Shown: positions 46,070 to 62,918, numbered from the stretch's first letter. The stretch: DNA of 64,000 nucleotides from an uncultured Saccharofermentans sp. (GCA_963675845.1 OY776634.1:1431605-1495604), one strand, 5' to 3'. Notes: generated from the sequence alone by a model not told the origin. Numbers and translations are program-made.

Positions 46070-46075
46070 GAGATT

Positions 46076-47014: not shown

Positions 47015-47195
47015 GAACTCTCCTTTCAATACCGAATAAAATATGCGACTCCTATTATAACTGTAATCAACTTGTAAAGCAAGCTGAGCAGGGTTGCCTT
47101 TCAGGACAACCGGGGGGGACGATAACTGTGTTAGAATATGGCTAATACGAGGCAATCAATATCTCATTTCCCTAAGTGTTAAGGAGTGGCTTTAT

Positions 47196-48623
47196 ATGAC
47201 AGAATCGGGCAGTGACAACAACAAAATCGTCAAGACAGGACAAATTCATGAATTGCAAATTGACAGCGTCAACCAGGACGGCCAGGGCATCGGCAGACTG
47301 GATGGCCTGGCGGTTTTCATCCCGCAAACAATCCCCGGGGATGTCGCCCTGATCCGGCTGGATACCATTAAGCCGAATTACGCGGTTGGCAGCCTGGTTG
47401 AATTGCTCAGGGCATCGGTCGACCGGATCAATCCGGTTTGTCCGATCGCGGATAAATGTGGCGGCTGCAGCCTGCAGGTGATGGCCTATCCGACACAGCT
47501 GATGTACAAGCAGCGTGAGATCACTGAGGTTCTAAGACGTATCGGCAAGGTCGAGGAACCGCAGAAAAAGATGCGACCGATCCTAGGCATGGTCAATCCG
47601 TGGCACTATCGAAGCAAGGCACAATTCCCGGTGTCCGGCACATCGGAAGACCCGCAGATCGGGTTTTATGCCAGCCGTTCACATGATGTGGTGCCATCGA
47701 CGGTTTGCCCGATCCAGCATCAGGCCAGCGACCGAATTAGACAGGTCCTGATCGACCATATCAAAGCTGAGAAGATTGAACCTTATCAGGAAAATACACA
47801 CAGCGGGCTGATTCGCCATCTGGTCGTCCGAGTTGGATTTGCGACAGGCGATGTCATGGTGATTCTGGTGGTCAACGGTGATCACTTCCCCGGCTCTGAA
47901 CATTTCCGGCAAAAAGCCGAGGAAGCTCTGGCAGCACTCAATCATCCGGACAAGAAGCGCTACCGATTGAAGAGCCTTTACCTCAATATTAACAAAGCCC
48001 AAACCAACCAGATCCTGTCTGAAGACTGCAAGCTGGTTTCAGGCCAGTCCTATATTGAGGAAATCATTCTCGGATCTCACTACAGGATTTCGCCGCTGTC
48101 ATTTTTCCAGGTCAATCCCAGACAGACGGAAATCCTTTATTCACAAGTGCTGAACATGGCCGGCCTGGATATCGACAAGACTGCCATCGACCTTTATTGC
48201 GGCACGGGTGCCATTTCCATCATCCTGGCTAGCCGGGCAAAGAAAGTGATCGGCATCGAGTCAGTTGCCCAAGCTGTGGAAGATGCACGCATCAATGCTG
48301 AGATCAACCGGCTGAAAAACACCGAGTTCATCGTCGGAAAAGCCGAAACAGTTCTGCCTAAACTGGTTAAAGAGGGCTTGACCGCCGATGTCGCTGTGAT
48401 TGATCCGCCAAGGAAGGGTTGTGACCCAGCCCTGCTGGAAGCAGTCGTCGAAGCCAAAATCCCCAGGATCGTCTATGTCTCCTGTTATCCGGCGACCTTG
48501 GCACGGGATATCGACTTGCTGCAAAAGCAAAACTACGAGGTCCAATCCATTCAGCCCGTTGATATGTTCCCTTGGACAGGGCATGTGGAGACCGTTGTAT
48601 TGATGTCAAGGGTAAACAAGTAA
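47196..48623 (+). CDS. rlmD: 23S rRNA (uracil-5-)-methyltransferase RlmD/RumA
   Basis: Start at MTESGSD after AAGGAG. TRAM domain, a [4Fe-4S] Cys cluster (CPIADKCGGCSLQ), a SAM-MTase fold (DLYCGTG), and the C-terminus ...GHVETVVLMSRVNK. Confidence 0.85.
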   Translation: MTESGSDNNKIVKTGQIHELQIDSVNQDGQGIGRLDGLAVFIPQTIPGDVALIRLDTIKPNYAVGSLVELLRASVDRINPVCPIADKCGGCSLQVMAYPTQLMYKQREITEVLRRIGKVEEPQKKMRPILGMVNPWHYRSKAQFPVSGTSEDPQIGFYASRSHDVVPSTVCPIQHQASDRIRQVLIDHIKAEKIEPYQENTHSGLIRHLVVRVGFATGDVMVILVVNGDHFPGSEHFRQKAEEALAALNHPDKKRYRLKSLYLNINKAQTNQILSEDCKLVSGQSYIEEIILGSHYRISPLSFFQVNPRQTEILYSQVLNMAGLDIDKTAIDLYCGTGAISIILASRAKKVIGIESVAQAVEDARINAEINRLKNTEFIVGKAETVLPKLVKEGLTADVAVIDPPRKGCDPALLEAVVEAKIPRIVYVSCYPATLARDIDLLQKQNYEVQSIQPVDMFPWTGHVETVVLMSRVNK

Positions 48624-48746
48624 GTGCAGTAAGAAGCCTTGAAATAAAGGCTTTCCGGGGTTTGAACGCAAAAATCGGTTGAGCAAAAATCATCAAAATA
48701 GCGGTTCGTGGAAACAAGTCCAAAGGCATGATTTTGAACGTGACAG

Positions 48747-48824
48747 AGCGATTTAAATAACATGGGTCTGCGTGTGGTCGATTTAGATAACACGGGCTTG
48801 TGGTGGTCAATTTAGATGTTATGG
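48747..48824 (+). repeat. iteron-like direct repeats (GTGGTC.ATTTAGAT family), three ~29-bp units
   Basis: GCGATTTAAATAACATGGGTCTGC / GTGTGGTCGATTTAGATAACACGGGCTTG / TGGTGGTCAATTTAGATGTTATGG, read directly. They are related to repeats at 54260, 54886, 60589 and 62711. Confidence 0.6.
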
Positions 48825-48940
48825 ATTTTACGAGGGTATATGTTCAGGATAGATGAAGTCTATTAAATTGATATCAGAGAAAATGTAGGTTCTGATATGA
48901 GAGTTAGGGTCAATTGGATAATACGTGGGAGGAGACAGTT

Positions 48941-49828
48941 TTGACAGTATTAAACAATCAGTTTGGAAAAAATATTAAATACTTAAGAACTGCCTACGGG
49001 GAAACTCAATTAGACCTTGCGCTGGCTGTTGGGCTGGACTCGCCAAATGCAATTGCTAATTATGAAAAAGGAGAACGGATACCCAAACCGGAAATAAAGA
49101 AAAAGATAGCGTTACATTACCGTATAACGGAAGATGAGCTTGTCCACTCAGATTTTTCCGGAATGCAGGTTTCTTCATCTCAATTAGGAAATAAACAAAA
49201 AATGATTGAGATGACACTACTTATGTGCCCCATCACCTGCACTGATAAAGCGATGAAGGATTCTTTGTTTCAAAAAGGCTATGCAGCCCATATGCGCGCT
49301 CTTGATGCAATGAAGGACGGATTTACATTTGCCGATGCTGATTATGATATGTGTATAGGTGCTTACTCAGATTCTTACGATGAATATGAAACGCCAGAGT
49401 CGTTAGCTAATATTCTTTGGTGGTTTGTAATAACCGAGCTGAGTATGAAAAACCAGTGGATGATTGATGGTGCGGAAGCGTTGAGTGATAAAAGAGTCAG
49501 CAAGAAGGATTTCTTTAAGAACTTCTATCTAAAGGATTGCTCATTTCCAGATGAGGGAAAACTGCTTGGAGAAACTGAACTAAAAGATTTAAAGGAAATG
49601 GGCGAGACGGTCGTTGAATTGTTAAAAGAGCTTAAGAAGAATGCTCAATATTCAAATCTTGCAGATTATTATATAGCTCTTAGATATATTTTGGGGTGTG
49701 TTGATAATGAACTTACAGAAGCAATGAATAAAGCTGTTGGTTCCGAAATGATTTGGGCCTTTGCACAGCTTGGAAATAAATATGCAAAGAAGTTTATTTT
49801 GCTCGGAATTGAAAATTTGCGAAAATAA
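48941..49828 (+). CDS. XRE-family HTH regulator with large helical C-terminal domain (RNPP/Rgg-like architecture?)
   Basis: HTH_XRE (IKYLRTAYGETQLDLALAVGLDSPNAIANYEKGERIP) plus a ~220-aa helical C-terminus. The start was chosen at a TTG 7 nt after GGGAGGAG; the ORF-track start at 48914 is also a TTG. Confidence 0.55.
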   Translation: MTVLNNQFGKNIKYLRTAYGETQLDLALAVGLDSPNAIANYEKGERIPKPEIKKKIALHYRITEDELVHSDFSGMQVSSSQLGNKQKMIEMTLLMCPITCTDKAMKDSLFQKGYAAHMRALDAMKDGFTFADADYDMCIGAYSDSYDEYETPESLANILWWFVITELSMKNQWMIDGAEALSDKRVSKKDFFKNFYLKDCSFPDEGKLLGETELKDLKEMGETVVELLKELKKNAQYSNLADYYIALRYILGCVDNELTEAMNKAVGSEMIWAFAQLGNKYAKKFILLGIENLRK

Positions 49829-49922
49829 ACACTAACCTCACAAAGTGTGAGCGATAAAATCCTCTGAACTAATATAATGAATACATAAGTTATTCAAGTA
49901 TATCGTAAGGAGGATTTTTTAT

Positions 49923-50366
49923 ATGGAAGAGCAGAAGAAAGGTTTTTTAGTCTGGGTTAAGAAACATAGGAAGGAACTTATTATTGCAGGTATCAGTGCA
50001 ACCGCATTGATTGGGATTATTATATGTATGAAGAATCGTGATTCAATTGAAGCCCTTTGGAAATCACTGATTGGGGCAATAGAAAAATCTCCTACCGAGA
50101 CTACGAAAATATCTCAAACGACAATCGAGAAGATTGCACAATCATCCGTCACTGTTACAGATGCCATCAACCCAACCAAAATACCGGTTATCAATTCGGA
50201 AATAACTTATCAAAATTCCTTTGAAGTTAGTGATCATATCAGAAACCTGCATGAAGGATGGCGTGCTTCTGCAACAAAGATCACTGAAGCAGAGTCCATG
50301 GGAATTATACTTCAGGAGGGACAAACATTGGTCGACGCTTATACAAAGGGATCTGTTGCAGCATGA
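49923..50366 (+). CDS. hypothetical single-pass membrane protein (147 aa)
   Basis: Strong RBS (TAAGGAGG). TM helix LIIAGISATALIGIIICM near the N-terminus. Confidence 0.45.
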   Translation: MEEQKKGFLVWVKKHRKELIIAGISATALIGIIICMKNRDSIEALWKSLIGAIEKSPTETTKISQTTIEKIAQSSVTVTDAINPTKIPVINSEITYQNSFEVSDHIRNLHEGWRASATKITEAESMGIILQEGQTLVDAYTKGSVAA

Positions 50367-50424
50367 GTTTGAAAGTCCAGAAGCAATCGTATCTTTTAAG
50401 ACTTAATAAAAGGAGTGTGTAAAA

Positions 50425-50589
50425 AATGCAAATGTGTGGAGAATGCATGAAAGTTTATGATGAATCTGAATATACAAAATGCCCTTTTTGTTACAAAGAG
50501 AAAGATGAATATACGCATGTTATTGTCTATGACAAGGAAGCAGGTATAGCAAAATCAGTACTAAAGGAAGAAGCGCATCTCTATGAGTG
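50425..50589 (+). CDS. small zinc-ribbon protein (54 aa; CxxC-11-CxxC), not in supplied ORF track
   Basis: AAAAGGAGTG RBS, then ATG. MQMCGECMKVYDESEYTKCPFCYKEKDEY... Coordinates are approximate to +/-1 nt. Confidence 0.45.
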
Positions 50590-50689
50590 AACAGCATTTG
50601 ATAATAGCTGGCGCACATTAATGAGATTTGCATATTCCCAAATAGAGCAACCTGTAAAACTAATGGTTAAATGAGGAGGTATAGAAGTA

Positions 50690-50872
50690 ATGGGGGATAG
50701 ATTTCCTGATATTGATTGGTGGTGTGATCGTTGCAACGCATATTTAAATGGCCAGATAGGATTTGATGATCATAAGTATATTTGGGAGTGCACTGAATGT
50801 GGTCATAAAAATAGCATCTCAGCTGCAAATATTTACGAATCCGAAGAAGACTTCAGGAATGGAAACAATTAA
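50690..50872 (+). CDS. small zinc-ribbon protein (60 aa; CxxC-18-CxxC)
   Basis: GAGGAGG RBS. MGDRFPDIDWWCDRCNAYLNGQIGFDDHKYIWECTECGHKN... Confidence 0.5.
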   Translation: MGDRFPDIDWWCDRCNAYLNGQIGFDDHKYIWECTECGHKNSISAANIYESEEDFRNGNN

Positions 50873-50896
50873 CTACTGCTGCATATTCGGAAATAT

Positions 50897-50950
50897 GAGA
50901 AAAAAGCTCCTCGTCGCTAGCAAGAATTAGCAAAGGGAGCTTTTTTTATT
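50897..50950. terminator. bidirectional terminator hairpin (AAAAAGCTCC ... GGAGCTTTTTTT) between convergent genes
   Basis: 10-bp stem flanked by an A-run and a T-run. The loop contains a GCTAGC palindrome. Confidence 0.5.
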
Positions 50951-52469
50951 CTTCAACATCCACCGTCACGCCGGACTTAAATTCCACGGTGAATTTGTCC
51001 TCATAAACGGTGATCTTTTCAATAAGCCTACGGACAAGCGCTTCGTCGTAGTTAGCAATGGCAGTGGGTTGCTCCTGAAGAAAAGCGCTCATGTCGGTGA
51101 TGCGTTTTTGCAGTTCATCCCGGCCGAGGTTCTCGACCTGAGCCTTTTGCTTCTCATCACGTAGGCGATAGATTTCATCGCCGACCTTCTCGTAGTCAGC
51201 CTTTGAGCTGGCGAGCTTCAAGAGCTCTGCTTGAAGTTCTGTAAGCCGTTTATCGATTGCGGTAAGGGTATGACTGTTTTCGTGACAAATAACGGTTTCG
51301 ATGTTTTCTGCAGCGTGATGAGAAAATGATCTTTATCACACAATGCTTGGTTGATGGCCGTGACCATCACTTGCTCTAAAGTGCTCTAGTACCGTTCGGG
51401 CTTCGCAGAAAAGACCAGTGTTTTCTAGGCGGCTGACACACCGCCAAACAACTGATTTCTTGCCTCGGTTGTTCCAGTGAACCCTGCGGAACACCTCGCC
51501 GCAGCCACCACATACAATCATGTTAGAGAAACAGTGGATGCAGCTGAAGGTCCTGTTCTTTCCGTTCGGGCTGGTGTGGACGATGCGGCGTTGGATGAGT
51601 TCCTCCTGCACCTGCATGAATATTTCACGCGGGATGATGGCCTCATGGCTGTTTTCCACATAATACTGTGGGACGACGCCGTGGTTCTTTACTCGAGTCT
51701 TTGTGAGGAAGTCAGTGGTGTATGTTTTCTGTAAAAGGGCATCCCCAATATACTTTTCATTTCGTAGGATATGATTGATATTGCTGGTATGCCATTTTTC
51801 ATTTCCGGCACCATTTAGAATGCCATCGGCTTCAAGGCCGCGCTTGATTTTCAGCATACTGGCACCTTTGAGGTACTCCCGGTAGATGCGCTTTATTATT
51901 TCTGCTTCTTCGGGGACAACGATCAGGCGCTTATTCTCATCCTTTGTAAACCCGAGGTAACGGTTGCAGTTGACCTGGATTTCGCCCTGCTGGTAGCGGT
52001 ACTGAAGCCCCAGCTTCACGTTCTGGCTGAGGGACTGGCTTTCCTGTTGTGCAAGAGAAGCCATAATGGTGAGCATGAACTCGCCCTTGGAATCCATGGT
52101 GTTGATGTTCTCCTTCTCAAAAATGACTGGAATATTCTTATCCTTCAGCTGGCGGATGTATTTCAGGCAATCCAGCGTATTCCGGGCAAATCGGCTGATC
52201 GATTTTGTAATGACCATGTCAATAGTGCCGGCAATACACTCGTCAATCATGCGATTGAACTCTTCGCGGTGCTTGGTGTTCGTCCCGGATATGCCATCGT
52301 CCGCAAAAATTCCCGCTAGCTCCCAGCTTAAATTGCTCTTGATGTAGGAAGTGTAATGCTCGATCTGCGCTTCATAGCTGGTGGCCTGTTCGTCGCTGTC
52401 CGTCGAAATGCGGCAGTAGGTAGCCACCCGTAGCTTGGGCTGTTCCTCGTCTGGATTTTTGTTTGCCAT
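50946..52469 (-). pseudogene. large serine recombinase (resolvase domain + recombinase domain + zinc ribbon + coiled coil), interrupted by two compensating indels
   Basis: ORF 51336..52469 carries the catalytic [22 protein letters not shown] and zinc-ribbon Cys residues. ORF 50946..51221 continues the C-terminal coiled coil. Between them the true frame ([26 protein letters not shown]) is displaced by an apparent 2-nt loss in GAGAG and a 1-nt loss in an A5 run. Confidence 0.75.
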
Positions 52470-52792
52470 AACCTGTCCGTTTTAATTTACCAGTTATATT
52501 TTATCACGAGTAACCCAACGGCCGTTTTTAGGGTAGAAAGTTGGTTAAGATTTAGCACCCCTACCCCTAAAAGCATAAAAAAATCTCAGTTTTAGCACAA
52601 ATCTTTGAAATTCTTGGAATTTTTTGCTGACCTTCACCTTTTAGCCTGACTAGGCGAATAGTCGATTTCTCGGTGATTGAACATCCCCCGAAAACTCCTC
52701 ATTTATCTATATCGTTGAAAGATTTCATCTATCTCCATCATTACGTTTCTATCTCCATCAAAATATGGTAAAATGATGGAGAAAGATAGTTG

Positions 52793-53860
52793 ATGATGGA
52801 GATTAGTATGCATACTTTTGATTATAAATCTAAACCACTTCAATGCCTGACACCTGATATTGTTGCGCTGATCACAAAGATTCATGAGTGTAAGGGACGG
52901 CAGGAACTGTTCATTGAAGCTAATCAGGATGAATTGAAATCATTGCTGGATATTGCCAGGATACAAAGCACAGGTTCATCTAACCGCATTGAAGGCATTT
53001 ATACATCCGATAAACGTTTGGAAGAGTTAGTCAGCGAAAAATCTGAACCTCGAAACAGATTTGAACAGGAAATAGCAGGATATCGTGAGGTATTGTCATC
53101 CATTCATAATCAATATGAGTACATTGTTCCAAGACCAAATATCATTTTGCAATTACACAGAGACTTATACGCTTACTCAAGTTCTCCGATAGGTGGTTCC
53201 TATAAAAACTCTGATAATTTCATTTCCGAAATAGATGGTGATAGGAAACAGAAGACCAGATTCACCCCCGTATCTGCATTTCAAACACCTGACGCCATGA
53301 ACCAGATGTGTGAAGCATTTTTATCATCATATGAACAGCAGACAATAGATTCACTTATTCTTATACCGATGTTCATTCTGGATTTCCTATGTATTCACCC
53401 GTTCAATGATGGTAATGGCAGGATCAGCCGTTTGCTGACTCTGCTGCTGCTCTATCAAACGGGGTATATTGTTGGGAAGTACATGAGTCTCGAAATGCTG
53501 ATTGAAAAAACCAAAGAAACATATTATGAAGCACTCCAGGATAGCTCAACTGGATGGCATCAAGATGAGAACCGATATGAACCTTTTGTCAAATATTATT
53601 TGGGGATTCTGGTGAAGGCTTATAATGAATTCGAAAACCGTATTGAGCACCTTAAATATCGTAAAATGTCAAAGCCAGAGCGAATCAAGGCTGTTATCGA
53701 ACGGAAAGTTGGCAAGATTACAAAAAAGGAAATTATGGAATATTGCCCTGACATCAGCCAAGTGACTGTTGAAAGAACGCTGACAAATCTGGTTAATAGC
53801 GGCTATATTCAAAAAATTGGGGCAGGGCCTGCAACGGCATATGTAAAAATTGAGCAATAG
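52793..53860 (+). CDS. Fic-family protein (class II, N-terminal inhibitory SxxxEG motif; C-terminal wHTH)
   Basis: Fic active-site motif HPFNDGNGRISR and an inhibitory-helix-like SSNRIEG. It is divergent from the serine recombinase gene. The start is ambiguous (52790 TTG, 52793 ATG or 52808 ATG). Confidence 0.8.
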   Translation: MMEISMHTFDYKSKPLQCLTPDIVALITKIHECKGRQELFIEANQDELKSLLDIARIQSTGSSNRIEGIYTSDKRLEELVSEKSEPRNRFEQEIAGYREVLSSIHNQYEYIVPRPNIILQLHRDLYAYSSSPIGGSYKNSDNFISEIDGDRKQKTRFTPVSAFQTPDAMNQMCEAFLSSYEQQTIDSLILIPMFILDFLCIHPFNDGNGRISRLLTLLLLYQTGYIVGKYMSLEMLIEKTKETYYEALQDSSTGWHQDENRYEPFVKYYLGILVKAYNEFENRIEHLKYRKMSKPERIKAVIERKVGKITKKEIMEYCPDISQVTVERTLTNLVNSGYIQKIGAGPATAYVKIEQ

Positions 53861-53866
53861 AGAACC

Positions 53867-53902
53867 TTATCACCATCAAAATGCTTTAAATGATGGTGAT
53901 AA
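53867..53902. repeat. perfect 12-bp inverted repeat TTATCACCATCA-(12 nt)-TGATGGTGATAA immediately after the Fic stop
   Basis: Read directly from the sequence. AT-rich stem, so it could be an operator or recombination site rather than a canonical terminator. Confidence 0.5.
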
Positions 53903-54067
53903 AATATTGAATGATGGAGAAGCTGATTTATATCGAGCTTAGGCTCTGGCTTCCTGGTTATGAGAAGATATCCATCCTGACCACTTACTCCTATGCGCAA
54001 ATGTTCCCTTGGCCCAATGAGGTTTTTTGGTGATGTTGACTTGAATGAAGAAGCAAAAATTATGTGA

Positions 54068-54157
54068 AAATCACATCAAAACATCGAGCTGGGGCTCTCG
54101 AACCATGCTGAGACGGTGGTATTGATGTTAAGAGTCGAGGTTGGAAAGACGATATAA
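54068..54157 (+). pseudogene. displaced rlmD 3'-end fragment 1 (translates ...IELGLSNHAETVVLMLRVEVGKTI*)
   Basis: The in-frame translation is homologous to the intact RlmD C-terminus (GHVETVVLMSRVNK). It shares the core GAGACGGTGGTATTGATGT with the intact gene (GAGACCGTTGTATTGATGT). Confidence 0.7.
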
Positions 54158-54259
54158 AGGCGTTTGCGGTTTTGATGAAAAATAGAGAGTGAGCATCGTC
54201 ACAAGCCGGACATGCAAGTGTGCAGATCGATGGGGAGATATCGCAAAATGGTATTTTGC

Positions 54260-54310
54260 GAGTGGTCAGGCTGGATGTTGAGGGCGTGCCAGTGGTCAGG
54301 CTGATATTAT
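54260..54310 (+). repeat. iteron-like direct repeats (GAGTGGTCAGGCTGGATG / CAGTGGTCAGGCTGATAT)
   Basis: Two units spaced 30 bp apart, preceded by a small perfect hairpin CGCAAAAT-ggt-ATTTTGCG at 54242-54260. Confidence 0.55.
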
Positions 54311-54358
54311 ATGAAACGTGCTGTTATTTGACCAAATGTCACGATCGGGAGGAAATGT

Positions 54359-54847
54359 ATGAAAACGCTGAATCAGCTTATAGGTGAATATACTTGCCAT
54401 TTGCAGCAGGGAGAAATTCAGATTGCATATAAGGGAATATTGGAGTTCATTGGTAAATTGCGAGCTGATTTCGTTAAAAAATATCCGTGTTATGACACAA
54501 GTAGCATATACCAGGGCTATATGGACATGTCGTATTTTTCATTAAGCACAAAACCTTTAAAGGATAAGGGGCTAAAGATTGCTATCGTCTACCTGCACGA
54601 AAAAGGCAACTTTGAAGTATGGCTTTCCGCCCGAAACAGAGAAATATCCAAGCAATATGAGTCTGTATTTTGCGGTAAATCTTTGGATGGGATTACAGTA
54701 TTTCATGACGATAATAATCAGGACGCCATCATAGAATATACCTTAATTTCTTCACCAGATTTTGAGGATCAGGTAATTTTGACAGATATTATCGAGCAAG
54801 GTATCGAAGTGTTCATAACGGCTGTAAGCAATCACCTTTTATGCTAA
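54359..54847 (+). CDS. hypothetical protein (162 aa)
   Basis: An RBS (GGGAGG) precedes the ATG. No recognisable motif. Confidence 0.45.
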   Translation: MKTLNQLIGEYTCHLQQGEIQIAYKGILEFIGKLRADFVKKYPCYDTSSIYQGYMDMSYFSLSTKPLKDKGLKIAIVYLHEKGNFEVWLSARNREISKQYESVFCGKSLDGITVFHDDNNQDAIIEYTLISSPDFEDQVILTDIIEQGIEVFITAVSNHLLC

Positions 54848-54885
54848 ATTTATAGTTGATGAGCAAGATAGAAATGACATTTTGC

Positions 54886-54966
54886 GTGTGGTCAGGTTAA
54901 ATAACAGCGAAAATTGAGTGGTCAGGTTAGATGTCGGGTGAGAGCAAGTGGTCAGGTTGGATGTTT
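54886..54966 (+). repeat. iteron-like direct repeats, three units (GTGTGGTCAGGTTAAATAACAGCG / GAGTGGTCAGGTTAGATGTCGGG / AAGTGGTCAGGTTGGATG)
   Basis: Units at ~30-bp periodicity. They are nearly identical to the pair at 60589-60653. Confidence 0.65.
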
Positions 54967-55060
54967 TTCAAATACTTTGAGGTGAATGATAATATCAATG
55001 TTGATTTTATATAGAATTGTTTAGCCTCGAGCATTTAGGCCGCTTGGGAAGGAATCACAA

Positions 55061-56143
55061 ATGCAAAAAACGAATCGAATTGTTCAAATGCTTAGAATAA
55101 TCATGCCTGTGGTGGGAGTCATCTGTCTTGTGGTATTCCCGCCTTGGGACGGAATATGGGCTTGGATAACACCATTGCCTGACACTGTGCAAGAACAAGT
55201 TGATGACGCGATTGGTCATGGCTTGGATGGAATCGTTGTTTATGTTGATGAAGCAGGCCAACCACCAGCATTTTATACTGCTGGCTGGAAAGACCGAGAT
55301 AATCAAATACCAGCCGACCCGCAATCTTATTTCAAGATTGGGAGTGTCAGTAAGTTATATGATGCTGTTGCTGTTACTAAATTGGTCAATGACGGACGCT
55401 TGTCTTTAGATAAAACGCTTGCAGATTTCTTTCCAGAGCTAGCTGGAAGGGTTGAATATGCAGATGAGATAACCTTGAGAATGTTGGTCCAACATCGTAG
55501 TGGTATTCCCAATTTAACCGACCAGCCTGGTTACCGCTGGGATAACCCACCGAAAACCAGTAGAGAAGCACTTGCATTGATACTGGATAGGCCTGCTGAC
55601 TTTGAACCGGGTGAGAAATATGCTTATTCAAACACGAATTATTTATTGATTTCTGAAATTATTGAAAAGGTGTTGGGTTATAGCAATTTTCAGTACATCA
55701 AGGAGGAGATTTTGACCCCACTTGGCCTAAAGAATACCTTCGGGTCAATTCATGATGTGAATTTGGACGATGTTATGAGCGGCTATTACGTAGGCGTTGA
55801 GTCCGATTTTAAACATATTGATGCTGGAATAGTAGCGACAGCGGAAGATGTGGGTATATTCTTGAGAGCATTGAACGATGGCTCATTGCTTAATGATAAT
55901 GAGCAGGCCATTTACTCTTCAATATATGTGTATGGACATACCGGCTGGGTCCTGGGATACCAAAGCTTTGCTCGTTACCACAACGACATTGATACAGTCG
56001 TGGTGCAATTTGTGAATACAACCGGTGGAACCCCGATTATTCCGTTTTTCGATACACAAGGCGGAACCAAGGTGATGGTATCGGAGGTTGTTTACAATCG
56101 TATTGTCCGAATTCTGCGCAAGGAAATGAAGCTTGATGATTGA
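55061..56143 (+). CDS. serine hydrolase, beta-lactamase/PBP (class C-like) family
   Basis: SVSK (SxxK) active-site motif within ...YFKIGSVSKLYDAVAV... A YSN-like motif (YAYSNTNY) follows. Length is 360 aa. Confidence 0.75.
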   Translation: MQKTNRIVQMLRIIMPVVGVICLVVFPPWDGIWAWITPLPDTVQEQVDDAIGHGLDGIVVYVDEAGQPPAFYTAGWKDRDNQIPADPQSYFKIGSVSKLYDAVAVTKLVNDGRLSLDKTLADFFPELAGRVEYADEITLRMLVQHRSGIPNLTDQPGYRWDNPPKTSREALALILDRPADFEPGEKYAYSNTNYLLISEIIEKVLGYSNFQYIKEEILTPLGLKNTFGSIHDVNLDDVMSGYYVGVESDFKHIDAGIVATAEDVGIFLRALNDGSLLNDNEQAIYSSIYVYGHTGWVLGYQSFARYHNDIDTVVVQFVNTTGGTPIIPFFDTQGGTKVMVSEVVYNRIVRILRKEMKLDD

Positions 56144-56225
56144 GCTTACAGATCTTCGTTCGAGATTATCGTACATGACATGAATGAAGCTTGTCTCAAT
56201 TTATGAGGAAGGATCACAGAATTAT

Positions 56226-56840
56226 ATGGATAATAGCGTTATAAAGAAATATAGAGACTATGCATCTAAAATAGGCGATAGAGAATCTCTTTATGAAGCT
56301 GTAGCAAAAGAATTCTCTATTTGTAATGCCATTTATCCTGGATCACATATTGATATAGCCCCATCTCTGTTTATTCCTGAAGTAACCTATATTGATAATT
56401 TTAAGGGTGCAATTAGTTTTTTCAAACATCAGGACATCATAAAAGAATATATTGAGCATAACAAAAAGTATTCAGATGCTTGTAAGATTGATTTCATTGG
56501 GCAGGACTACACTCAACCACTTGAGATTGATCAAGTCGACTTGATTATTTCTCAGTATGCTGGTTTTGTCAGCCAGGCAACAAAGCGATATCTAAAAATT
56601 GGTGGAATCCTGTTGTGCAATGACAGTCATGGAGACGCAACGATGGCAAGATTTGATGATGATTTTGAGTTTATTGGCATTGTAGATAATCAAAACAAAA
56701 TTCGATTAACCGACATAGAGAATTACTTCAAATTACCAAAAGGAAAATCCGTTGATCTGGAAATAGTTAAATTAAAAATGAAGGGTTTGAAATATACATT
56801 GGTTGCTGAGAATTACATATTTCGCAAACTAACCTCTTAA
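56226..56840 (+). CDS. hypothetical protein (possible Rossmann/methyltransferase-like fold)
   Basis: ...VDLIISQYAGF...LKIGGILLCND... resembles MTase motifs II/III but no GxGxG motif was seen. The start is uncertain (56184 or 56226). Confidence 0.4.
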   Translation: MDNSVIKKYRDYASKIGDRESLYEAVAKEFSICNAIYPGSHIDIAPSLFIPEVTYIDNFKGAISFFKHQDIIKEYIEHNKKYSDACKIDFIGQDYTQPLEIDQVDLIISQYAGFVSQATKRYLKIGGILLCNDSHGDATMARFDDDFEFIGIVDNQNKIRLTDIENYFKLPKGKSVDLEIVKLKMKGLKYTLVAENYIFRKLTS

Positions 56841-57935
56841 AATCAACCATCACCCCTGACCGGAAAACCACCACGAACCGATCCTCATGAACCGTGACCT
56901 TGTCGATCAATCGCTGAACCAGTTTCTCGTCATATTCTTTGATGACCGTCGACTGCTTTCGGAGGGAAATGCTCATTTCGGAGATCCGCTTGCGAAGATC
57001 ATCCCGGCCGGCGTTTTCCACTTGAGCCTTCTGTTTTTCATCACGCAGTCGGTAGATTTCCTTGGTCACAAGGGTAATGTCAGCATGGGCACTGGCCAGC
57101 TTCAACAGTTGGATTTGCAGATCGTTCAGCCGCTGCTCAATGTCCTCGATCGCAGCATCATTTTTCATGCTGAGCACAGTGGCAATGTTGTTCTGCACAG
57201 TGGCCAGGAATGAATCCCGGCTTTTCAAGGTGGTGTTGATGGCGGTGACCAGAACCTGCTCAATGGTGCTTTCCAGAACCGTGCGAGCATCGCAGAACAC
57301 GCCAGTGTTTTCCAGCCGGCTGGCGCAGCGCCAAACGATTGATCGCTTACCGCGATTGTTCCAATGGACCCGACGATCGTACGGCTTGAGCAGATTTTGA
57401 CAGTGTGGACAGGCGATGGTTTCCGTCCCCGTGATTACAAACGATTTTGACTATCCCATTTTCTCTGGAAACGTGATACAATAACCATGTTTTTATTTTT
57501 GAAGACCTCGGGATGCTCCAACGTCAATTGGAGCTAGTCAACCCGGGGCCTTTTTCTTTCCTCCCGAATTATTCTTCGGTCATTATATCCGGCAGGTTTT
57601 GGACAGGCAAGTCCGGTAGCTTCTAGACACTATATCCCGGCTCAAGCACCAGGTACTCCCGATAGATGCGTTTAACAACCTCAGCTTCTTCTAAGACGAT
57701 GATCAGTTTGTCGTTTTCGCCGCGGGTGTATCCCGGAAATCGCTTGCAATTGACCTGAACCTCTTCCTTGCTGGTATCGGTACTGCAGGCCCATTTTCAC
57801 GTTCTGACTCAGCGACTGGCTTTCCTGCTGAGCAAGCGATGCCATGATCGTCAACATGACTTCACTTTTGTCATCCATGGAATTGTTGCTTTCTTTATAA
57901 CCCGATATGGGTAAATATTGGATAATAATACCCAC
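56767..57935 (-). pseudogene. large serine recombinase remnant (5'-truncated, internal deletion and frameshift)
   Basis: Segments homologous to the element-I recombinase: ...[31 protein letters not shown]..., then a frame switch to [39 protein letters not shown], then a gap, then ...[52 protein letters not shown]... to the C-terminus. The catalytic N-terminus is absent. Confidence 0.7.
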
Positions 57936-57994
57936 AATTCATTGACATGGGTAATAAATGTCAGTAAAATACCCATGTAAGGGGATTATATGTC

Positions 57995-59065
57995 ATGAAT
58001 GAGCAAAAACTACCTATGTTGCCACCAAATGCTGAATTGGAAACTAAAGCTGTGCTCAAGCAGCTGGCAAGATCCAATCGAGCATTGGCTGAACTGAAAG
58101 GTTATGCAGATACTATTCCGAATAAACATATTTTGATCAATGCGGTCATAATCAATGAGGCTAAGGATAGTTCTGCAATTGAAAATATCATAACAACCCA
58201 TGACGATCTTTATAAAGCTATGAGTGATGCAAGTGGTGCAAGTCATGCCGCAAAAGAAGTTGTGAGCTACAGGGCTGCTTTATGGCAAGGATATGAGTTG
58301 GTTATGGCACGTGAAATGCTGACAACAAATATGCTTGTTGAGATACAAGGAATTATTGAGAAAAACCGAGCAGGAATACGAAAACTGCCTGGTACCGTCC
58401 TTCGGAATGAAAGAACAGGTGAAACTGTATATACGCCGCCTGCAGGTGAATCTGAAATCAGAGAACTCTTAAATAATCTAGAAAAATACATCAATGAAGA
58501 CAATAATGATCTGGATCCATTAATAAAGCTGGCAGTCATCCATTACCAGTTTGAAAGCATCCATCCTTTCTATGACGGCAATGGAAGGACCGGCAGAATC
58601 ATAAATGTGCTTTACTTGGTATTGAAGGAATTGCTCCATAGTCCGATTCTTTATTTGAGCAGCTATATTATCAAGAACAAGTCAGCCTATTACAGATTGC
58701 TTCAGGAAGTTCGAACCCAAGAAAATTGGGAAGAATGGGTACTCTATATTCTCACAGGTATTGAAGAAACAGCAGAAGAGACACTGAGATTAGTCAAGAG
58801 AATCAATTTTGAAGTTGAAACAATGAGTGCTGAGATAAAGGAGAAACTTCCTAAAATTTATTCGAAAGAACTAATTGATTTGCTGTTTCATGAGTTTTAT
58901 ACAAAAACGATATATATTGAAAACGGCTTATCAGTAACAAGAAAGACTGCCGCAAATTACCTGTCTTCTCTTGAAAAAGAGGGCTTTCTTACTTCAGAAA
59001 AGATAGGAAGGGAGCGGATTTATCAAAACAAAAGATTGTACGACTTGGTTAAGTACGGGCAATGA
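57995..59065 (+). CDS. Fic-family protein (class II, inhibitory SAIEN motif; C-terminal wHTH)
   Basis: HPFYDGNGRTGR Fic motif and an SSAIEN inhibitory-helix-like motif. It is divergent from the recombinase remnant, as in element I. Confidence 0.8.
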   Translation: MNEQKLPMLPPNAELETKAVLKQLARSNRALAELKGYADTIPNKHILINAVIINEAKDSSAIENIITTHDDLYKAMSDASGASHAAKEVVSYRAALWQGYELVMAREMLTTNMLVEIQGIIEKNRAGIRKLPGTVLRNERTGETVYTPPAGESEIRELLNNLEKYINEDNNDLDPLIKLAVIHYQFESIHPFYDGNGRTGRIINVLYLVLKELLHSPILYLSSYIIKNKSAYYRLLQEVRTQENWEEWVLYILTGIEETAEETLRLVKRINFEVETMSAEIKEKLPKIYSKELIDLLFHEFYTKTIYIENGLSVTRKTAANYLSSLEKEGFLTSEKIGRERIYQNKRLYDLVKYGQ

Positions 59066-59355
59066 AGCTGAAATAGTATATCAGGCAACCTGGCATACAG
59101 TTATCTTTCTCAAAAATCACCGGGATGTTCTTATCCTTCAGCTGCCGGATGTATTATAGGCAATCCAGCGTATTTCGGGCAAACCGACTGATCGACTTGG
59201 TGATGACCATGCCAATATTGCATCCATGTACTCGTTATTTTTGCGATTGATTCGCCACTTTAGGGTAATATAAATAATCGTATTGATATTTGGCTTTGCC
59301 GCTTGCTTATGCCATAACATCAAGCAAGAAAGTCAAGTTAAAGCGTGGTGATCAC

Positions 59356-59694
59356 ATGAAACATTCACGGGAAATCTTAAATCTCGCAAAACAGAATAAT
59401 GGTGTAATCACCACCGCGATGGTTGTTGCAGCCGGTTTTCCGCGAGGAAGCCTTAAATATCTGGTGGATACCGGAGTTCTAGAAAAAGCTTCACGCAGTG
59501 TCTATATTCTGCCAGAGGTTTTGGAAGATGAATTCGTCAACCTGCAGAGCAGATTTAAACGCGGTATCTTTTCTCTGGGGACAGCGTTGTTTCTCTGTGA
59601 CTTGACGGACAGAACTCCAGGGAAGTATCACATGACATTCCCCAGCACTTATAATCTTTCGGGCCCGAAGGAAGCAGGTATCTTGTGCATATGA
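59356..59694 (+). CDS. AbiEi-like antitoxin (type IV TA), short form
   Basis: MKHSREILNLAKQNNGVITTAMVVAAGFPRGSLKYLVDTGVLEKASRSVYIL is an AbiEi N-terminal wHTH-like domain. It overlaps the downstream nucleotidyltransferase gene by 10 nt. Confidence 0.55.
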   Translation: MKHSREILNLAKQNNGVITTAMVVAAGFPRGSLKYLVDTGVLEKASRSVYILPEVLEDEFVNLQSRFKRGIFSLGTALFLCDLTDRTPGKYHMTFPSTYNLSGPKEAGILCI

Positions 59695-60358
59695 TCGGAC
59701 TCGATTCCAGAGCAACGATGGATATGGATGCAACGATTAAACGATATCCGGTAAGCGGGGAGACTGTTCGGACGATGGTTGAGGAAATTCTCAGGATCGA
59801 TCTTGATGACGTTATTTCTTTCACATTCAAGAAAATCGGAGAGATCAGAGAAGGGGATGAATACCCAGGATATCGTGTTTCACTAGTTGCTAATTATCCG
59901 CCTATGGCAGTTCCGCTGAAATTAGATATCACTGCGGGTGATAAAATCACACCACGCGAGATTGTATATGATTATAGACTGATGCTGGAGAATCGCAGTA
60001 TAAATGTGCTTGCCTATAATCTGGCAACAATACTGGCCGAAAAACTTGAAACCGTTATTTCTCGCGGCGATTAAAACACCAGAACGAGAGACTACTACGA
60101 TATCTTTATCCTGATAAAACTGCAGGCGGAGAATATTGATCTTAAAAACTTAGCCTTGGCTTTGCGTAAAACAGCCAGGAAAAGGGGCTCGGAGACGATA
60201 GTTAGGCAGTACCGGAGAGCATGGAAGCCGTGAGAAATAGTGAAGCTATGAACCGGCAGTGGTCCAATTACCGCAAGGATTTTGACTATGCAACCAACAT
60301 AGAATTTTTGGAAGTCTGTGATGTTGTAGCCAGCGTGATGTATAACCTGCTGGAATGA
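59685..60358 (+). pseudogene. AbiEii/AbiGii-family nucleotidyltransferase toxin, disrupted (in-frame TAA plus 3' frameshift)
   Basis: The N-terminal segment ends ...LETVISRGD-TAA-NTRTRDYYDIFILIKLQ..., continuing in the same frame. The C-terminal segment ...EAMNRQWSNYRKDFDYATNIEFLEVCDVVASVMYNLLE is in a different frame. Near the 5' end, EILRIDLDDVISFTFKKIGEIREGD resembles the family's conserved N-terminal region. Confidence 0.6.
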
Positions 60359-60478
60359 ACAGTCCAGTCATCAATCGTGGTTTTTCACAGACCTATACTC
60401 ACAGACATCAAAGGCAAGCTCTCGAACCACGTTAAGACGGTGGTCTTGATGTCGAGGGTTGAGGTTGGAAATGCCTGA
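60359..60478 (+). pseudogene. displaced rlmD 3'-end fragment 2 (translates ...VQSSIVVFHRPILTDIKGKLSNHVKTVVLMSRVEVGNA*)
   Basis: Homologous to the RlmD C-terminus (YEVQSIQPVDMFPWTGHVETVVLMSRVNK). It is ~80% identical to fragment 1 over the core and shares the GAGGTTGGAAA segment downstream of it. Confidence 0.7.
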
Positions 60479-60588
60479 CAATGTAGGGTTTGCCGATTTA
60501 GGGGATAATGGGGAAGTGAGAATAATGACGACCTTGGCCTTGTAAGAGAACAGATCGACGCGAGGAGACAGGAAAAATGGCAAGACTT

Positions 60589-60653
60589 GTGTGGTCAGGT
60601 TAGATAACAGCGACAATCGAGTGGTCAGATTAGATGTCGGGGTGAAGTTGAGC
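60589..60653 (+). repeat. iteron-like direct repeats (GTGTGGTCAGGTTAGATAACAGCGACAATC / GAGTGGTCAGATTAGATGTCGGGGTG)
   Basis: Near-identical to units 1-2 at 54886-54947, and at the same position relative to the rlmD fragment. Confidence 0.65.
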
Positions 60654-60730
60654 CTAGCTTGATATGGTACAATCGATACAAGAAATAGATAATTCAAAAT
60701 ATGAAGTATATGTAAGAATAGGGAACAATC

Positions 60731-61324
60731 GTGATGAAATTAGACGTTAAAAACTTAGAATGGACACGTGAGCCAAATGATTATGTAATTACTGAAGATA
60801 AAGTGGAAATTACGACGAAACCACATACAGATTTATGGCAAAGAACCTATTATCATTTTAGAAACGATAATGCACCGGTTCTGCAAATGGAAACAAAGGA
60901 AAAGTTTTTTTCATTTAGCGTTAAAACTGACTTTGATAGTAAAAAACGATTCGATCAATGTGGGGTTGTTGTGTACCTTGATCGTGATAATTGGATTAAA
61001 GGATCTATTGAGTTTGAAAATGAACATTTTCAACATTTAGGAAGTGTTGTTACAAACAATGGTTATTCTGATTGGGCAACAACAGAAATTCCAGCTAATA
61101 TCAAATCAATGTGGTACCGCATAAGTCGTAGAGAAGATGATTTTTGCATAGAGTGTTCTAGTGATGGTAAAACTTATCAGCAGATGAGAATATGCCATAT
61201 GTTCAATGCACAAAATATTATTAAGTTTGGAATTTATGCGTGTAGTCCAGAAGACTCTACCTTTAAAGCAACATTTTCAAACATGGAAATTACCGAATGC
61301 CAGTGGCCTGCACATACAAGTTAG
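60731..61324 (+). CDS. DUF1349-like (concanavalin-A-like lectin/glucanase fold) protein
   Basis: 197 aa. ...LEWTREPNDY...DLWQRTYYHF... resembles DUF1349/YesU-like proteins, from memory. Confidence 0.5.
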   Translation: MMKLDVKNLEWTREPNDYVITEDKVEITTKPHTDLWQRTYYHFRNDNAPVLQMETKEKFFSFSVKTDFDSKKRFDQCGVVVYLDRDNWIKGSIEFENEHFQHLGSVVTNNGYSDWATTEIPANIKSMWYRISRREDDFCIECSSDGKTYQQMRICHMFNAQNIIKFGIYACSPEDSTFKATFSNMEITECQWPAHTS

Positions 61325-61801
61325 CAACAAGGACTCTCTCACTTGGTGAACTAAAGAAACTTATGAAAAAAGCAGCGTAAATACTAGAAGCAGTGACCAT
61401 GACAATAATGCATGTTTAAGAGGCCTGAGTCATCTGGAGCAGGCCTTGCCAACGGGATATGGACTCAGTTACGTCAGATGGACAAAAACCTCGTTGGCAG
61501 ACAGGTTGCTGAATATGACGCGCATGAGTTTTTCGTCGGTATGGCCAAGGGCAATGAAATAACGCTTGCCTTGGGCCTGCGTGGCAGCCTGGCATCGACC
61601 AAAAGTCTCGCAATGCTAAGCGGCCAGCCGTGCCGCCTGCATCAAAATCCAGCGCGGATAGATTGAGCCGTGCTTAACCATCGGTGTTTTATCAGCTTTG
61701 AATATGCCAATGCTGATTTATATCAAGAATCTGTCAGAAAAGCTGTAAGCCAGGCGATCAGAAAGCATGTAGATAGCCATTGGGAATAAGGGAGACGCAC
61801 A

Positions 61802-62635: not shown

Positions 62636-62710
62636 GGCTGGAATATTACTGATATAAGGGTGATTTCGGATTTGAAAATAATAGCAAGTGTTTATGATCA
62701 GCCCCCTGCC

Positions 62711-62739
62711 GAGTGCCAGCGGTCAGGTTAGAGGGGCGG
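62711..62739 (+). repeat. single iteron-like unit (GAGTGCCAGCGGTCAGGTTAGAGGGGCGG)
   Basis: Matches the GGTCAGGTTAGA core of the repeat family. It lies upstream of the SDR gene. Confidence 0.45.
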
Positions 62740-62918
62740 CTGAAACATCACCTATCATTATCGCGGTATAGTGGAATTGGTTCGTTGAAAAAATATATAA
62801 TAAACCTGAAACCAAATGCAGTGCCAATACAGCGAAAATCTAAATGAATATACAGGACTTTTGATGCGCCTATTTGATGTTGCGTAACGGCAGATTACAA
62901 AATGATGGAGGCCTGATC

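Follow-up and report, generated by a model that had tools for sequence, protein, structure and literature searches.

The stretch of DNA analysed here, a window of 64,000 nucleotides from an uncultured Saccharofermentans sp., contains an intact rlmD gene on the + strand at 47196–48623, encoding the 475-residue 23S rRNA U1939 methyltransferase. The assignment follows from the open reading frame and from Pfam, where the TRAM and U5-methyltransferase matches are both full-length, and a protein 100% identical to it (P0001) is encoded on a 3.18-Mb contig. RlmD ends in ...GHVETVVLMSRVNK*, with the stop codon at 48621–48623. GC content drops at this stop, from 0.516 in 48000–48499 to 0.404 in 48500–48999, and stays between 0.34 and 0.51 as far as the window end. 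Both the gene end and the drop had been picked out in the original prediction, which was made from the sequence alone and took the region beyond rlmD to be a stack of integrative elements. Here, we argue that it very likely holds at least three integrative elements, now decayed, that were stacked in tandem at the rlmD 3′ end through site-specific accretion and later cut down by deletions.

The last rlmD codons are repeated at 54104–54157 and at 60428–60478. Translated in frame, the segment 54068–54157 gives KSHQNIELGLSNHAETVVLMLRVEVGKTI* and the segment 60359–60478 gives ...KGKLSNHVKTVVLMSRVEVGNA*, and the two displaced copies are 85% identical over 54 nt, GAGGTTGGAAA included, so that their predicted agreement downstream of a shared core is borne out. 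The core itself, 19 nt long, has three sites in the 64 kb (48588, 54110 and 60434), whereas shuffled sequence would lead one to expect 0.08. All three junctions lie on the + strand, spaced 5,522 and 6,324 nt. An HMM of RlmD tails, built from the C-termini of 117 RlmD homologues with the window's own protein excluded, was run over the complete set of 2,538 peptides from six-frame translation of the window; it placed the true RlmD first (E = 6.5e-15), the copy at 54 kb second (3.1e-4) and the copy at 60 kb third (7.6e-4), the best match after these having E = 1.3. Significant similarity to RlmD C-termini, on which the original prediction had staked its case, is therefore present in both pieces. 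Could they nevertheless be relics of a duplicated rlmD, or chance ORF-like strings in a low-GC island, unrelated to recombination sites? They are short (13–17 codons), with single E-values of only about 1e-3 to 1e-4. However, upstream of the His codon neither copy contains rlmD-like sequence, and a P arm of the phage attP type precedes this codon in both; moreover, the geometry of core, 152–192 nt and repeat array occurs more than 100 times in other genomes. We regard such an origin as extremely improbable and effectively refuted.

The junction at rlmD is of the attL type (48582–48607, + strand), with a predicted crossover CA at 48582–48583 followed by the P′ arm CATGTGGAGACCGTTGTATTGATGTC. 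Both distal copies are complete attP-like junctions, in the form of a 50-nt inverted repeat GACATCAA-N34-TTGATGTC. In junction 2 (54080–54129, + strand), the P arm of element I (AACATCGA...) is joined at CA 54104–54105 to the P′ arm of element II (...TTGATGTT), as read from the sequence and from alignment with the P arms of viral contigs and the attP of PV036457, a deposited complete phage genome with an intact P–P′ site of the same form as junctions 2 and 3. Junction 3 (60404–60453, + strand) combines the P arm of element II with the P′ arm of element III around CA 60428–60429. At each internal junction, the right end of one element meets the left end of the next, both in the same orientation.

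Element I begins with a left-end module (48608–48854, + strand) that consists of the codons of the tail with their stop, a hairpin (48635–48652) that is conserved and, from computed energies, a probable rlmD terminator, and an array of repeats at 48744, 48774, 48803 and 48840. This module is 85% identical to the sequence behind rlmD in L002, a 295-kb contig, and matches about 79 other loci. The left-end cargo (48914–50366, + strand) encodes a 304-residue protein with an XRE-type HTH (Pfam) and a 147-residue protein without assigned function. Next, on the − strand at 50946–52469, lies a pseudogene with Resolvase, Recombinase, Zn_ribbon and DUF4368 matches, of which PF00239, PF07508 and PF13408 fall on 51336–52469 and DUF4368 on 50946–51221; its resolvase catalytic, recombinase and zinc-ribbon domains identify it as a large serine recombinase. 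The translation contains a YCRIST motif, aligns over residues 18–522 of an intact 522-residue homologue and is 88% identical to the 522-residue recombinase of L002, the outermost of three there. Compared with the intact homologue, its frame is broken by two deletions, one of 2 nt near 51388 and one of 1 nt near 51308. The right-end cargo is a Fic-domain protein of the SoFic defence type (52790–53860, + strand; Pfam Fic; PADLOC SoFic, E = 1.5e-38).

Element II likewise begins with a left-end module (54130–54306, + strand; tail ...RVEVGKTI*, repeat copies at 54262 and 54292). Its cargo, all on the + strand, consists of a DUF7000 protein (54359–54847; Pfam), which is also found directly behind such modules in five other loci, a second repeat array (54888–54962), a serine beta-lactamase-like protein (55061–56143; Pfam) and a 218-residue protein without assigned function (56184–56840). 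Three − strand fragments and nothing else are left of the recombinase gene: residues 332–519 and 127–214 of the 522-residue homologue at 56842–57914 (tblastn, Pfam), and an N-terminal piece, approximately residues 96–135, at 59100–59250 (tblastn, with blastn matches to more than 20 loci). These fragments flank a full-length SoFic-type Fic protein (57995–59065, + strand; Pfam Fic_N, Fic and SoFic-like_C; PADLOC E = 7e-115, 348/361 profile positions). A broken AbiEi/AbiEii abortive-infection pair (59290–60074, + strand; Pfam, PADLOC) forms the right-end cargo; in locus L070, an AbiEii gene likewise adjoins the P arm. Element III starts at 60454 with the tail ...RVEVGNA*, repeats at 60591 and 60621, and DUF1349, nitroreductase and SDR genes, a lone repeat copy at 62719 standing between the latter two; it is on the + strand and extends past the window end at 64000. 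A conserved module of about 290 nt with 15-nt repeat arrays stands behind each of the three junctions.

The recombinase decay foreseen with distance from rlmD is indeed seen, from two small deletions in element I to fragments in element II and no recombinase after 59250, either in the window or in the next 5 kb of a sister genome. Elements I and II are remnants of 5.5 and 6.3 kb that lack a working recombinase, and neither is an intact element. No phage genes are present in 48624–64000, where the recombinase content amounts to one pseudogene plus fragments. The distal end of the stack, where the original end of the host gene would be expected, lies beyond the window, and the 5 kb of sister sequence past the window end contain no further rlmD end.

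Comparison with this sister genome localizes the variable part of the stack. Identity between the two genomes is 99.6% as far as 48586; mismatches then group at 48587, 48593 and 48599, and divergence is full from 48611. The difference is confined to 48587 to about 52250, inside the recombinase gene, after which the sequences are identical to 64000. The sister genome carries other genes at the position of the element I left-end cargo, and its recombinase copy is also defective, split into three ORFs. The proximal element is the sole difference between the near-identical genomes, as repeated integration would have it, but this difference could also stem from homologous replacement instead of fresh integration. 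Between the two genomes, elements II and III show about 100% identity and no stepwise intermediate is seen, which would fit arrival of the whole stack, or at least of II and III, in one pre-assembled piece, whether excised and transferred jointly or acquired as a large donor fragment through homologous recombination. In Streptococcus, experiments have demonstrated both the co-transfer of tandems and the exchange of the entire rum locus in a RecA-dependent manner (PMC13651849). We consider such an arrival possible, if somewhat unlikely, as the proximal element does vary between the sister genomes; it would alter only the place of accretion and not the nature of the structure, the junctions remaining P–P′ hybrids. 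In two relatives with the same upstream gene order (L144 and L145), three cores are spaced 5.5 and 2.5 kb with a repeat array behind each, and a truncated recombinase gene and a Fic gene stand ahead of the third core. The search for empty rlmD sites or single-element occupants, proposed alongside the original prediction, found none in this lineage, and three loci of the two nearest lineages are occupied as well.

Where within the gene end are the strands exchanged? We infer the exact position from a position-by-position profile of 51 attL-type (rlmD) and 69 P-type junctions, in which the most probable site is the CA of the His codon, an invariant dinucleotide (48582–48583, 54104–54105 and 60428–60429). 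In the 51 rlmD junctions, synonymous sites left of CA are near random, and from CA rightward the base frequencies equal those of the 69 P-type junctions. TnpX/TndX-type recombinases use GA, and an alternative crossover would be the GA that opens the Glu codon GAG (48588–48589), leaving His and Val to the host. For vanG/ICE-r elements in rumA of five species, insertion has been inferred to follow a GA in GAG, the 11th codon counted from the gene end (PMC4120198), and the Glu in the window likewise occupies this position. However, the third base of the Val codon (48587) differs between the sister genomes along with the element, and it is T in 88% of the 51 rlmD junctions as against 86% of the 69 non-coding P arms, while sites just upstream of CA are near random; in addition, the symmetry centre of GACATCAA...TTGATGTC coincides with CA. 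A GA exchange thus appears unlikely. With exchange at CA, the rlmD codons from His (48582) to the stop are, judging from the sequence, contributed by element I, and the shared core, which had been proposed as an att core, belongs to the element-borne P′ arm, the boundary between host and element lying just upstream, at or next to the His CA.

The remnants in the window can be related to more complete elements elsewhere. In L002, rlmD is followed by the same tail–hairpin–repeat module, two cargo genes and recombinase genes of 522, 137 and 520 codons, and then by SHOCT, amidase, holin and large structural-size genes; this element is a prophage at rlmD with the same layout as the window elements. 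Because the window lacks the complete set of recombinases as well as phage genes for structure and lysis, which are seen only in relatives such as L002, the window elements are remnants of the rlmD/rum prophage type and not intact members. Identities to named phages were measured with P0135, an intact member of the 90%-identity cluster of the window recombinase that differs little or not at all from the L002 recombinase. P0135 is 84% identical at the protein level to the recombinase of phage PV036457, 66.5% over 522 residues to that of Streptococcus suis phage phi-SsuFJNP3_rum, 66.5% also to that of phi-SsuFJNP9_rum, and 57% to that of Erysipelothrix phi1605. Retrieval via the repeat arrays brought up 15 contigs of viral origin and, as a lower bound, over 118 loci in species-level genomes. 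Among the loci listed, the core is nearly always 164–165 or 191–192 nt upstream of the array; at least about 47 modules stand directly behind a full rlmD and at least about 72 are preceded by a non-coding P arm or by another element's end, which makes stacking a common arrangement. The same left-end sequence occurs behind rlmD in dozens of unrelated genomes, and right ends of the vanG/ICE-r type precede the module in other loci (AAATAGCCTAA...CACGTTGAG). This recurrent left end, the rum-type recombinase and the attP-like internal copies agree with the predicted repeated integration of elements that carry their own rlmD 3′ end.

The source is very likely a temperate phage family, with its derivatives, in Clostridia and other Bacillota that integrates via large serine recombinases. 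Intact members have three genes for recombinases (520, 137 and 522 codons), encoded opposite to rlmD, and a 50-bp attP, GACATCAA-N34-TTGATGTC, whose right half P′ encodes H-V-E-T-V-V-L-M-S-R, two to seven more codons and a stop, with a hairpin next. Integration therefore swaps the last 13–17 rlmD codons and the probable terminator without inactivating the gene; and since P′ mimics the host gene end, the new junction of host left half and P′ would still be attB-like and able to take the next element. The older element would be displaced distally behind an attP-looking P–P′ junction, such as those at 54080–54129 and 60404–60453, and the newest would adjoin rlmD. To our knowledge, attL is not normally a substrate of canonical large serine integrases; we infer both the order of events and the service of attL as a substitute attB, and re-use of the junction would rest on the mimicry of B′ by P′. 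Phage bodies were probably lost afterwards by recombination between similarly oriented recombinase genes of neighbours and by other deletions. Each element now retains its left end (P′ arm, module and cargo), a recombinase gene in part, defence cargo at the right end (SoFic, AbiE) and the P arm. All recombinase copies observed are defective, so that the elements cannot be taken to be mobile today, and PCR for excised circles would probably be negative unless recombinase is given in trans.

The target-site logic had been thought unreported, but the pile-up at rlmD in Gram-positive bacteria is already well known. Elements are known to insert at the rumA/rlmD 3′ end, an established hotspot for which tandem insertions have been published in Firmicutes, Clostridia included (PMC4120198, PMC4701971, PMC11578063, PMC13651849, PMC12785378), and tandem accretion there has been published for streptococci, enterococci, Roseburia, Dehalobacter and Erysipelothrix. 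Tandem accretion at rum, where phage–ICE tandems are found, has been demonstrated by experiment (PMC13651849), and rlmD-flanked prophages are reported from several Gram-positive bacteria (PMC12785378). The streptococcal and Erysipelothrix rum prophages (phi-SsuFJNP3_rum, phi1605, phiEr670; Phi-m46.1-type group) share with the window a homologous large serine recombinase and a target within the HVE codons of the rlmD/rum 3′ end, whereas the window holds only remnants without a phage body. In phi-SsuFJNP3_rum, the recombinase genes lie directly behind rlmD on the same strand, without repeat arrays; in the window's family they are on the opposite strand, 1–12 kb from att, behind the conserved module and variable cargo. 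The vanG/ICE-r elements in rumA of Streptococcus, Enterococcus and Roseburia use the same gene end, at the Glu 11 codons before the stop, and likewise include two different elements in tandem with an in-frame gene end restored (PMC4120198). They differ in having a single right-end integrase gene fused to displaced rumA codons, a 115-codon left-end fusion and an inferred GA exchange, whereas the P arms in the window are non-coding and the recombinase lies away from the right end. A single-integrase element of the vanG/ICE-r/Tn1549 type was rejected for the window, as no recombinase ORF runs into either internal junction: a Fic gene and 220 nt of non-coding sequence lie upstream of junction 2, and AbiE fragments and 330 nt upstream of junction 3.

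The comparison with SCC made in the original prediction is fair as an analogy of function. In staphylococci, SCC elements are inserted by large serine recombinases at the 3′ end of an rRNA methyltransferase gene (rlmH/orfX) with the gene end kept, and composite SCC arrays have repeated integration-site sequences between units. The target in the window is rlmD, which rules out membership in SCC, and the recombinase groups with rum-phage enzymes. Accretion and deletion of the ICESt1/CIME type, as outlined where PMC13651849 cites Pavlovic (2004) and Bellanger (2011), similarly involves growth by integration into a resident att, shrinkage by deletion and internal hybrid att sites left behind, but with tyrosine integrases and another target gene in place of the serine recombinases of the window. 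In Dehalobacter, of the class Clostridia, a variable island of 100–400 kb with many recombinases has the rumA 3′ end as a boundary, and this gene end is called an established integration hotspot; the account of these islands in PMC11578063 resolves them at block level, with no att anatomy or repeat module described there. An integron-like cassette array was rejected, as there is no tyrosine recombinase among the proteins searched, the 15-nt repeats are direct 15-mers (consensus of 106 instances) and not attC-like imperfect palindromes, and the left boundaries of the secondary repeat arrays vary from case to case.

The 3′ end of rlmD (47196-48623, + strand), which ends in GHVETVVLMSRVNK followed by the stop codon, recurs in two displaced copies further downstream, as had been proposed from inspection of the sequence. 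There are exactly three occurrences of the 19-nt core named in the original prediction (at 48588, 54110 and 60434; 0.08 would be expected in the 64-kb window), both segments proposed as gene-end copies give the predicted translations, and the two displaced ends, copies 2 and 3, have 54 nt in common at 85% identity. A lack of significant similarity of these fragments to RlmD C-termini had been set beforehand as a refuting outcome. Using a C-terminal-tail profile built from 117 RlmD homologues without the window's own RlmD, and the 2,538 six-frame peptides of the window as target, we find that the true RlmD ranks first (E 6.5e-15), followed by the two copies (E 3.1e-4 and 7.6e-4), with the next peptide at E 1.3. 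Pfam coverage of the window RlmD reaches residue 472 of 475. The drop in GC content first noted by eye is also present: across the rlmD stop codon it falls from 0.516 to 0.404, and it stays low up to the window end.

The DNA behind rlmD is a stack of at least three decayed integrative elements. On its + strand, element I (48582-54103; 5,522 nt) encodes an HTH protein and a small ORF; its - strand holds the gene for a large serine recombinase (50946-52469), with Resolvase, Recombinase, Zn-ribbon and DUF4368 domains, and there is also a Fic gene of the SoFic type (52790-53860). Element II (54104-60427; 6,324 nt) contains DUF7000, a beta-lactamase-like gene, an unknown gene, three recombinase fragments, a second SoFic gene that sits between these fragments and matches the full length of the PADLOC profile (57995-59065), and a broken AbiEi/AbiEii pair (59290-60074). 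Element III begins at 60428 and runs beyond the window end, with DUF1349, nitroreductase and SDR genes. The state of the recombinases is as first read, with two small indels in element I (one 2-nt and one 1-nt deletion compared with an intact 522-aa homologue), a gutted copy in element II, of which only the three fragments are left, and none in element III, whether in its window part or in the 5 kb that follow in the sister genome. Both SoFic genes and the AbiEi/AbiEii pair are placed at element right ends. At other loci the genes adjacent to the element right-end att arm (P) are likewise accessory or defence genes, including AbiEii, McrBC, WYL and ADP-ribosylglycohydrolase, and the SoFic and AbiE genes of the window match this pattern of right-end cargo.

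Upstream of the His codon near the gene end, copies 2 and 3 have no resemblance to rlmD. They carry a left arm instead, an octamer (GACATCAA in copy 3, AACATCGA in copy 2) that begins 24 nt before the CA of the His codon and leaves a 16-nt gap to it, and a right arm that is the reverse complement of the left (TTGATGTC in copy 3, TTGATGTT in copy 2). In both copies the two arms form a 50-nt inverted-repeat site centred on the CA. The left arm is also found in viral contigs and genome loci, and in the complete phage genome PV036457 as CCAGACATCAATCTGATGCTATCGTTCCACGTTGAGACGGTGGTATTGATGTCAAGG; the combined P-arm-plus-core pattern of copies 2 and 3 has zero exact matches in the viral contigs. This attP-like anatomy indicates that at every internal copy the right end (P) of an element abuts the left end (P′) of the following one, and such P-P′ junctions are the expected trace of a new element integrating into the junction of a resident one.

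Where does the host gene end and the element begin? We surveyed public collections for the repeat pair that follows the junctions, and the matches listed include 15 viral contigs and more than 118 species-level genome loci; since the repeat pattern was the search criterion, elements that bear the repeats are over-represented in this sample. At 51 distinct junctions between rlmD and the repeat-bearing stretch (among the matches listed), synonymous sites immediately before the His codon show nearly random base usage, with C in 15, A in 8, G in 19 and T in 9 at position -1. From the CA on, base frequencies equal those of 69 listed junctions with something other than rlmD on the left: the third base of the His codon is C in 73% of the 51 and 67% of the 69, and that of the Val codon is T in 88% and 86%, respectively. 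On the basis of this frequency profile, a mismatch with the sister genome at the Val third base and the centre of the inverted-repeat symmetry, the host/element boundary is predicted to lie at or adjoining the CA (48582-83). Exchange at the GA of the Glu codon, 6 nt downstream, has been inferred for the vanG and ICE-r elements (PMC4120198); these three observations point to the CA, and we consider exchange at the GA possible but rather unlikely. With the boundary at the CA, the core in the original prediction lies wholly on the element side: the sequence shared by the three ends is real, but it is the element half of the att site only, and the boundary is upstream of it. The window RlmD has an element-encoded C-terminus, the low-GC DNA from 48624 to the window end is marked as horizontally acquired, and the analysis yields precise junction coordinates together with a predicted crossover.

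How can a gene end be hit repeatedly and the gene survive? P′ encodes the conserved RlmD end and has a hairpin next to it, such that the element supplies the gene end and probably a terminator, and rlmD stays intact. In the mechanism that we propose, the mimicry of the host gene end by P′ would keep the junction a usable target for the next element, and rlmD sites would thus fill up. A hairpin with a short T run (48635-48652) directly follows the element-supplied rlmD stop and is found at the same position in 106 related modules, where its stems vary between lineages with compensating changes and its mean folding energy is -10.4 kcal/mol, against -5.6 kcal/mol for shuffles. Judged by these sequence features, it is probably a terminator for rlmD brought by the element. 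The predicted repeated integration of elements that carry their own rlmD 3′ end is supported both by the P-P′ internal junctions and by a difference in the proximal element between the window and its sister genome.

This sister genome (loci L001 and L021; 3.21 Mb) is 99.6% identical to the window from 37195 to 48586, has mismatches at 48587, 48593 and 48599, and is unrelated from 48611; its rlmD encodes a different tail (SRTEAGRA before the stop codon) and is followed by different cargo. Similarity resumes inside the recombinase gene, with 58-74% identity over 50991-51987 and 100% by about 52386, and from there the two are essentially identical up to 64000. The differences are thus confined to the left part of the proximal element, a pattern consistent with a newly arrived element and a subsequent deletion between two recombinase genes of like orientation. 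Such deletions would also explain the small size of the elements. In two more distant relatives (L144/L145 and L143) the upstream order of Lon, amino-acid kinase, PBP, M23 peptidase and rlmD is shared. The cores of L144/L145 number three (at 11432, 16935 and 19417), each with repeat arrays behind it, and a truncated recombinase gene and a Fic gene are also present; L143 has a low-GC island without arrays; an empty rlmD site was found in none of the sister genome, L143 and L144/L145. The host lineage, known from two near-identical genomes (3.18 and 3.21 Mb), is an isolated one within the Bacillota. Its EF-Tu (39151-40350) and class A PBP (43763-46069) are the sole members of their 90%-identity clusters, the closest RlmD is 59% identical, and an RlmD-peptide scan of species-level genome contigs returned no relative. 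Exact searches with the RlmD, recombinase and nitroreductase of the window matched no gene record; P0121 and the Fic protein led to the sister genome.

The recombinase of the window belongs to a 90%-identity cluster of 85 members, in which intact proteins have 522 aa. With one of these (P0135) as query, protein identity is 84% to the recombinase of PV036457, and the nearest named recombinases of deposited phages are those of Streptococcus phi-SsuFJNP3_rum and phi-SsuFJNP9_rum (66.5%), Erysipelothrix phi1605 (57%) and several Javan prophages. On a 295-kb contig (L002) the 522-codon gene is the outermost of three recombinase genes (520, 137 and 522 codons) that close a prophage with SHOCT, amidase, holin and large genes; two cargo genes lie between these recombinases and rlmD, whose tail (SRVDK before the stop codon) and next 200 nt share 85% identity with window 48558-48820.

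Among the survey matches listed, hosts are mostly Clostridia with some Bacilli, and homologues of the 522-aa recombinase lie on the opposite strand, 1-4 kb downstream of the cores. About 47 of the listed cores end a full-length rlmD (31-65% identical to that of the window), and about 72 are preceded by a P arm or by the end of another kind of element. Several loci have two cores within 8 kb, the proximal element often being of another type, with a + strand recombinase gene that ends ~150 nt before the next core. The rlmD-targeting family is widespread in anaerobic Bacillota, and in this module-fetched survey stacking at the rlmD site is the rule, not the exception. Its attP/attB pairs may be of interest for genome-engineering toolkits based on large serine integrases.

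The target-site logic had been put forward as unreported, but it has clear precedents. Transposons, ICEs and phages with serine recombinases are described as inserting at the rumA/rlmD 3′ end, an established site for them (PMC4701971, PMC11578063), vanG and ICE-r elements are reported in tandem at rumA in streptococci, with relatives in Enterococcus and Roseburia (PMC4120198), rlmD-flanked prophages are reported in Erysipelothrix and other Gram-positive bacteria (PMC12785378), and site-specific accretion into phage-ICE tandems at rum has been experimentally reconstituted (PMC13651849). The stack in the window is therefore a further example of a known phenomenon, in an isolated lineage. The suggested likeness to SCC at rlmH holds as an analogy; SCC belongs to a different family.

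The sole part for which we found no precedent is a ~290-nt conserved non-coding module that follows each junction and ends in 2-5 direct copies of a 15-nt repeat, GTGGTCAGGTTAGAT, spaced 29-30 or 39-41 nt. Conservation of the module stops exactly at the last repeat copy, and in nearly every surveyed locus among the matches listed the distance from the core to the downstream array is 164-165 or 191-192 nt. Eleven of the 12 matches to the repeat in the window are inside the island (1.2 expected by chance). Repeat copies lie at 48744-48854, 54262-54306, 54888-54962, 60591-60635, 62719-62733 and, on the - strand, 53970-53984. The repeats are widespread, with more than 118 genome loci and 15 viral contigs among the matches listed, are absent from the rum phages of S. 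suis, in which rlmD directly adjoins the recombinases, and vary in concert between lineages (GTGGTCGATTTAGAT, GTGCTCAGGTCAGAT, GGTGAGTTGAYAAGAT). Whole arrays are reiterated before successive cargo genes (54262 and 54888 in the window; also L037/L073), and array and next ORF are co-oriented in 89 of 104 cases among the matches listed.

What could this module do? A structured RNA finds no Rfam match at gathering or E-value threshold, with a fold z-score of -1.1. A sigma-70 promoter is equally poorly supported, as consensus matches are no commoner than in shuffles and, across 109 instances, a -10 peak is absent downstream of the arrays. The repeats and the P′ arm both contain GATGTC/GATAAC, which might suggest extra att half-sites, but within loci there is no covariation between the two variants (Fisher p = 0.14, opposite sign). 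Integron-like cassettes are unsupported, given that secondary arrays lack a consistent left boundary. A literature search gave no match to the repeat sequence. Our best guess is that an element-encoded protein may bind the repeats to control cargo expression or att-site architecture. That the module is an undescribed functional part, providing either accessory binding sites for one of the three recombinases or another element protein or a portable control/capture unit for repeat-plus-gene cargo, is a long shot. If the former, this would be a serine-integrase att site with arm-type sites; if the latter, cargo would be added behind the att site as repeat-plus-gene units. The module is the one lead worth following, the remainder being mainly good annotation of modest interest.

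A second type of element occupies the same site in five surveyed loci (L053, L124, L034, L041 and L038), with a single + strand recombinase gene that stops ~150 nt short of the next core (AAATAGCCTAA..CACGTTGAG) and its own tail, ITRNM before the stop codon; some of these elements are merely ~1.8 kb. Across the RlmD homologues (P0002-P0120), distant C-termini fall into a few recurring tail types, namely SRVxx, SRTEAGKA, TRSGSGDKK and ITRNM, each before the stop codon. As the SRVxx, SRTEAG-type and ITRNM tails are identical to tails encoded by element left ends, many RlmD C-termini annotated in databases may be supplied by mobile elements. Between the 5′ end of the element I recombinase gene and the divergent SoFic gene, a 30-nt inverted repeat (52731-52803; 83% complementary, 13-nt spacer), to which Rfam gives weak hairpin-type chance matches only, may be an operator. 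Finally, past the window end in the sister genome (L021, ~16330-16970), the end of a GNAT gene carries TTGATGTCAAGG, which matches 12 nt of the P′ arm exactly. Behind it lies a Fic gene fragment 86% identical to window 58593-58948, and this site may be an eroded further junction.
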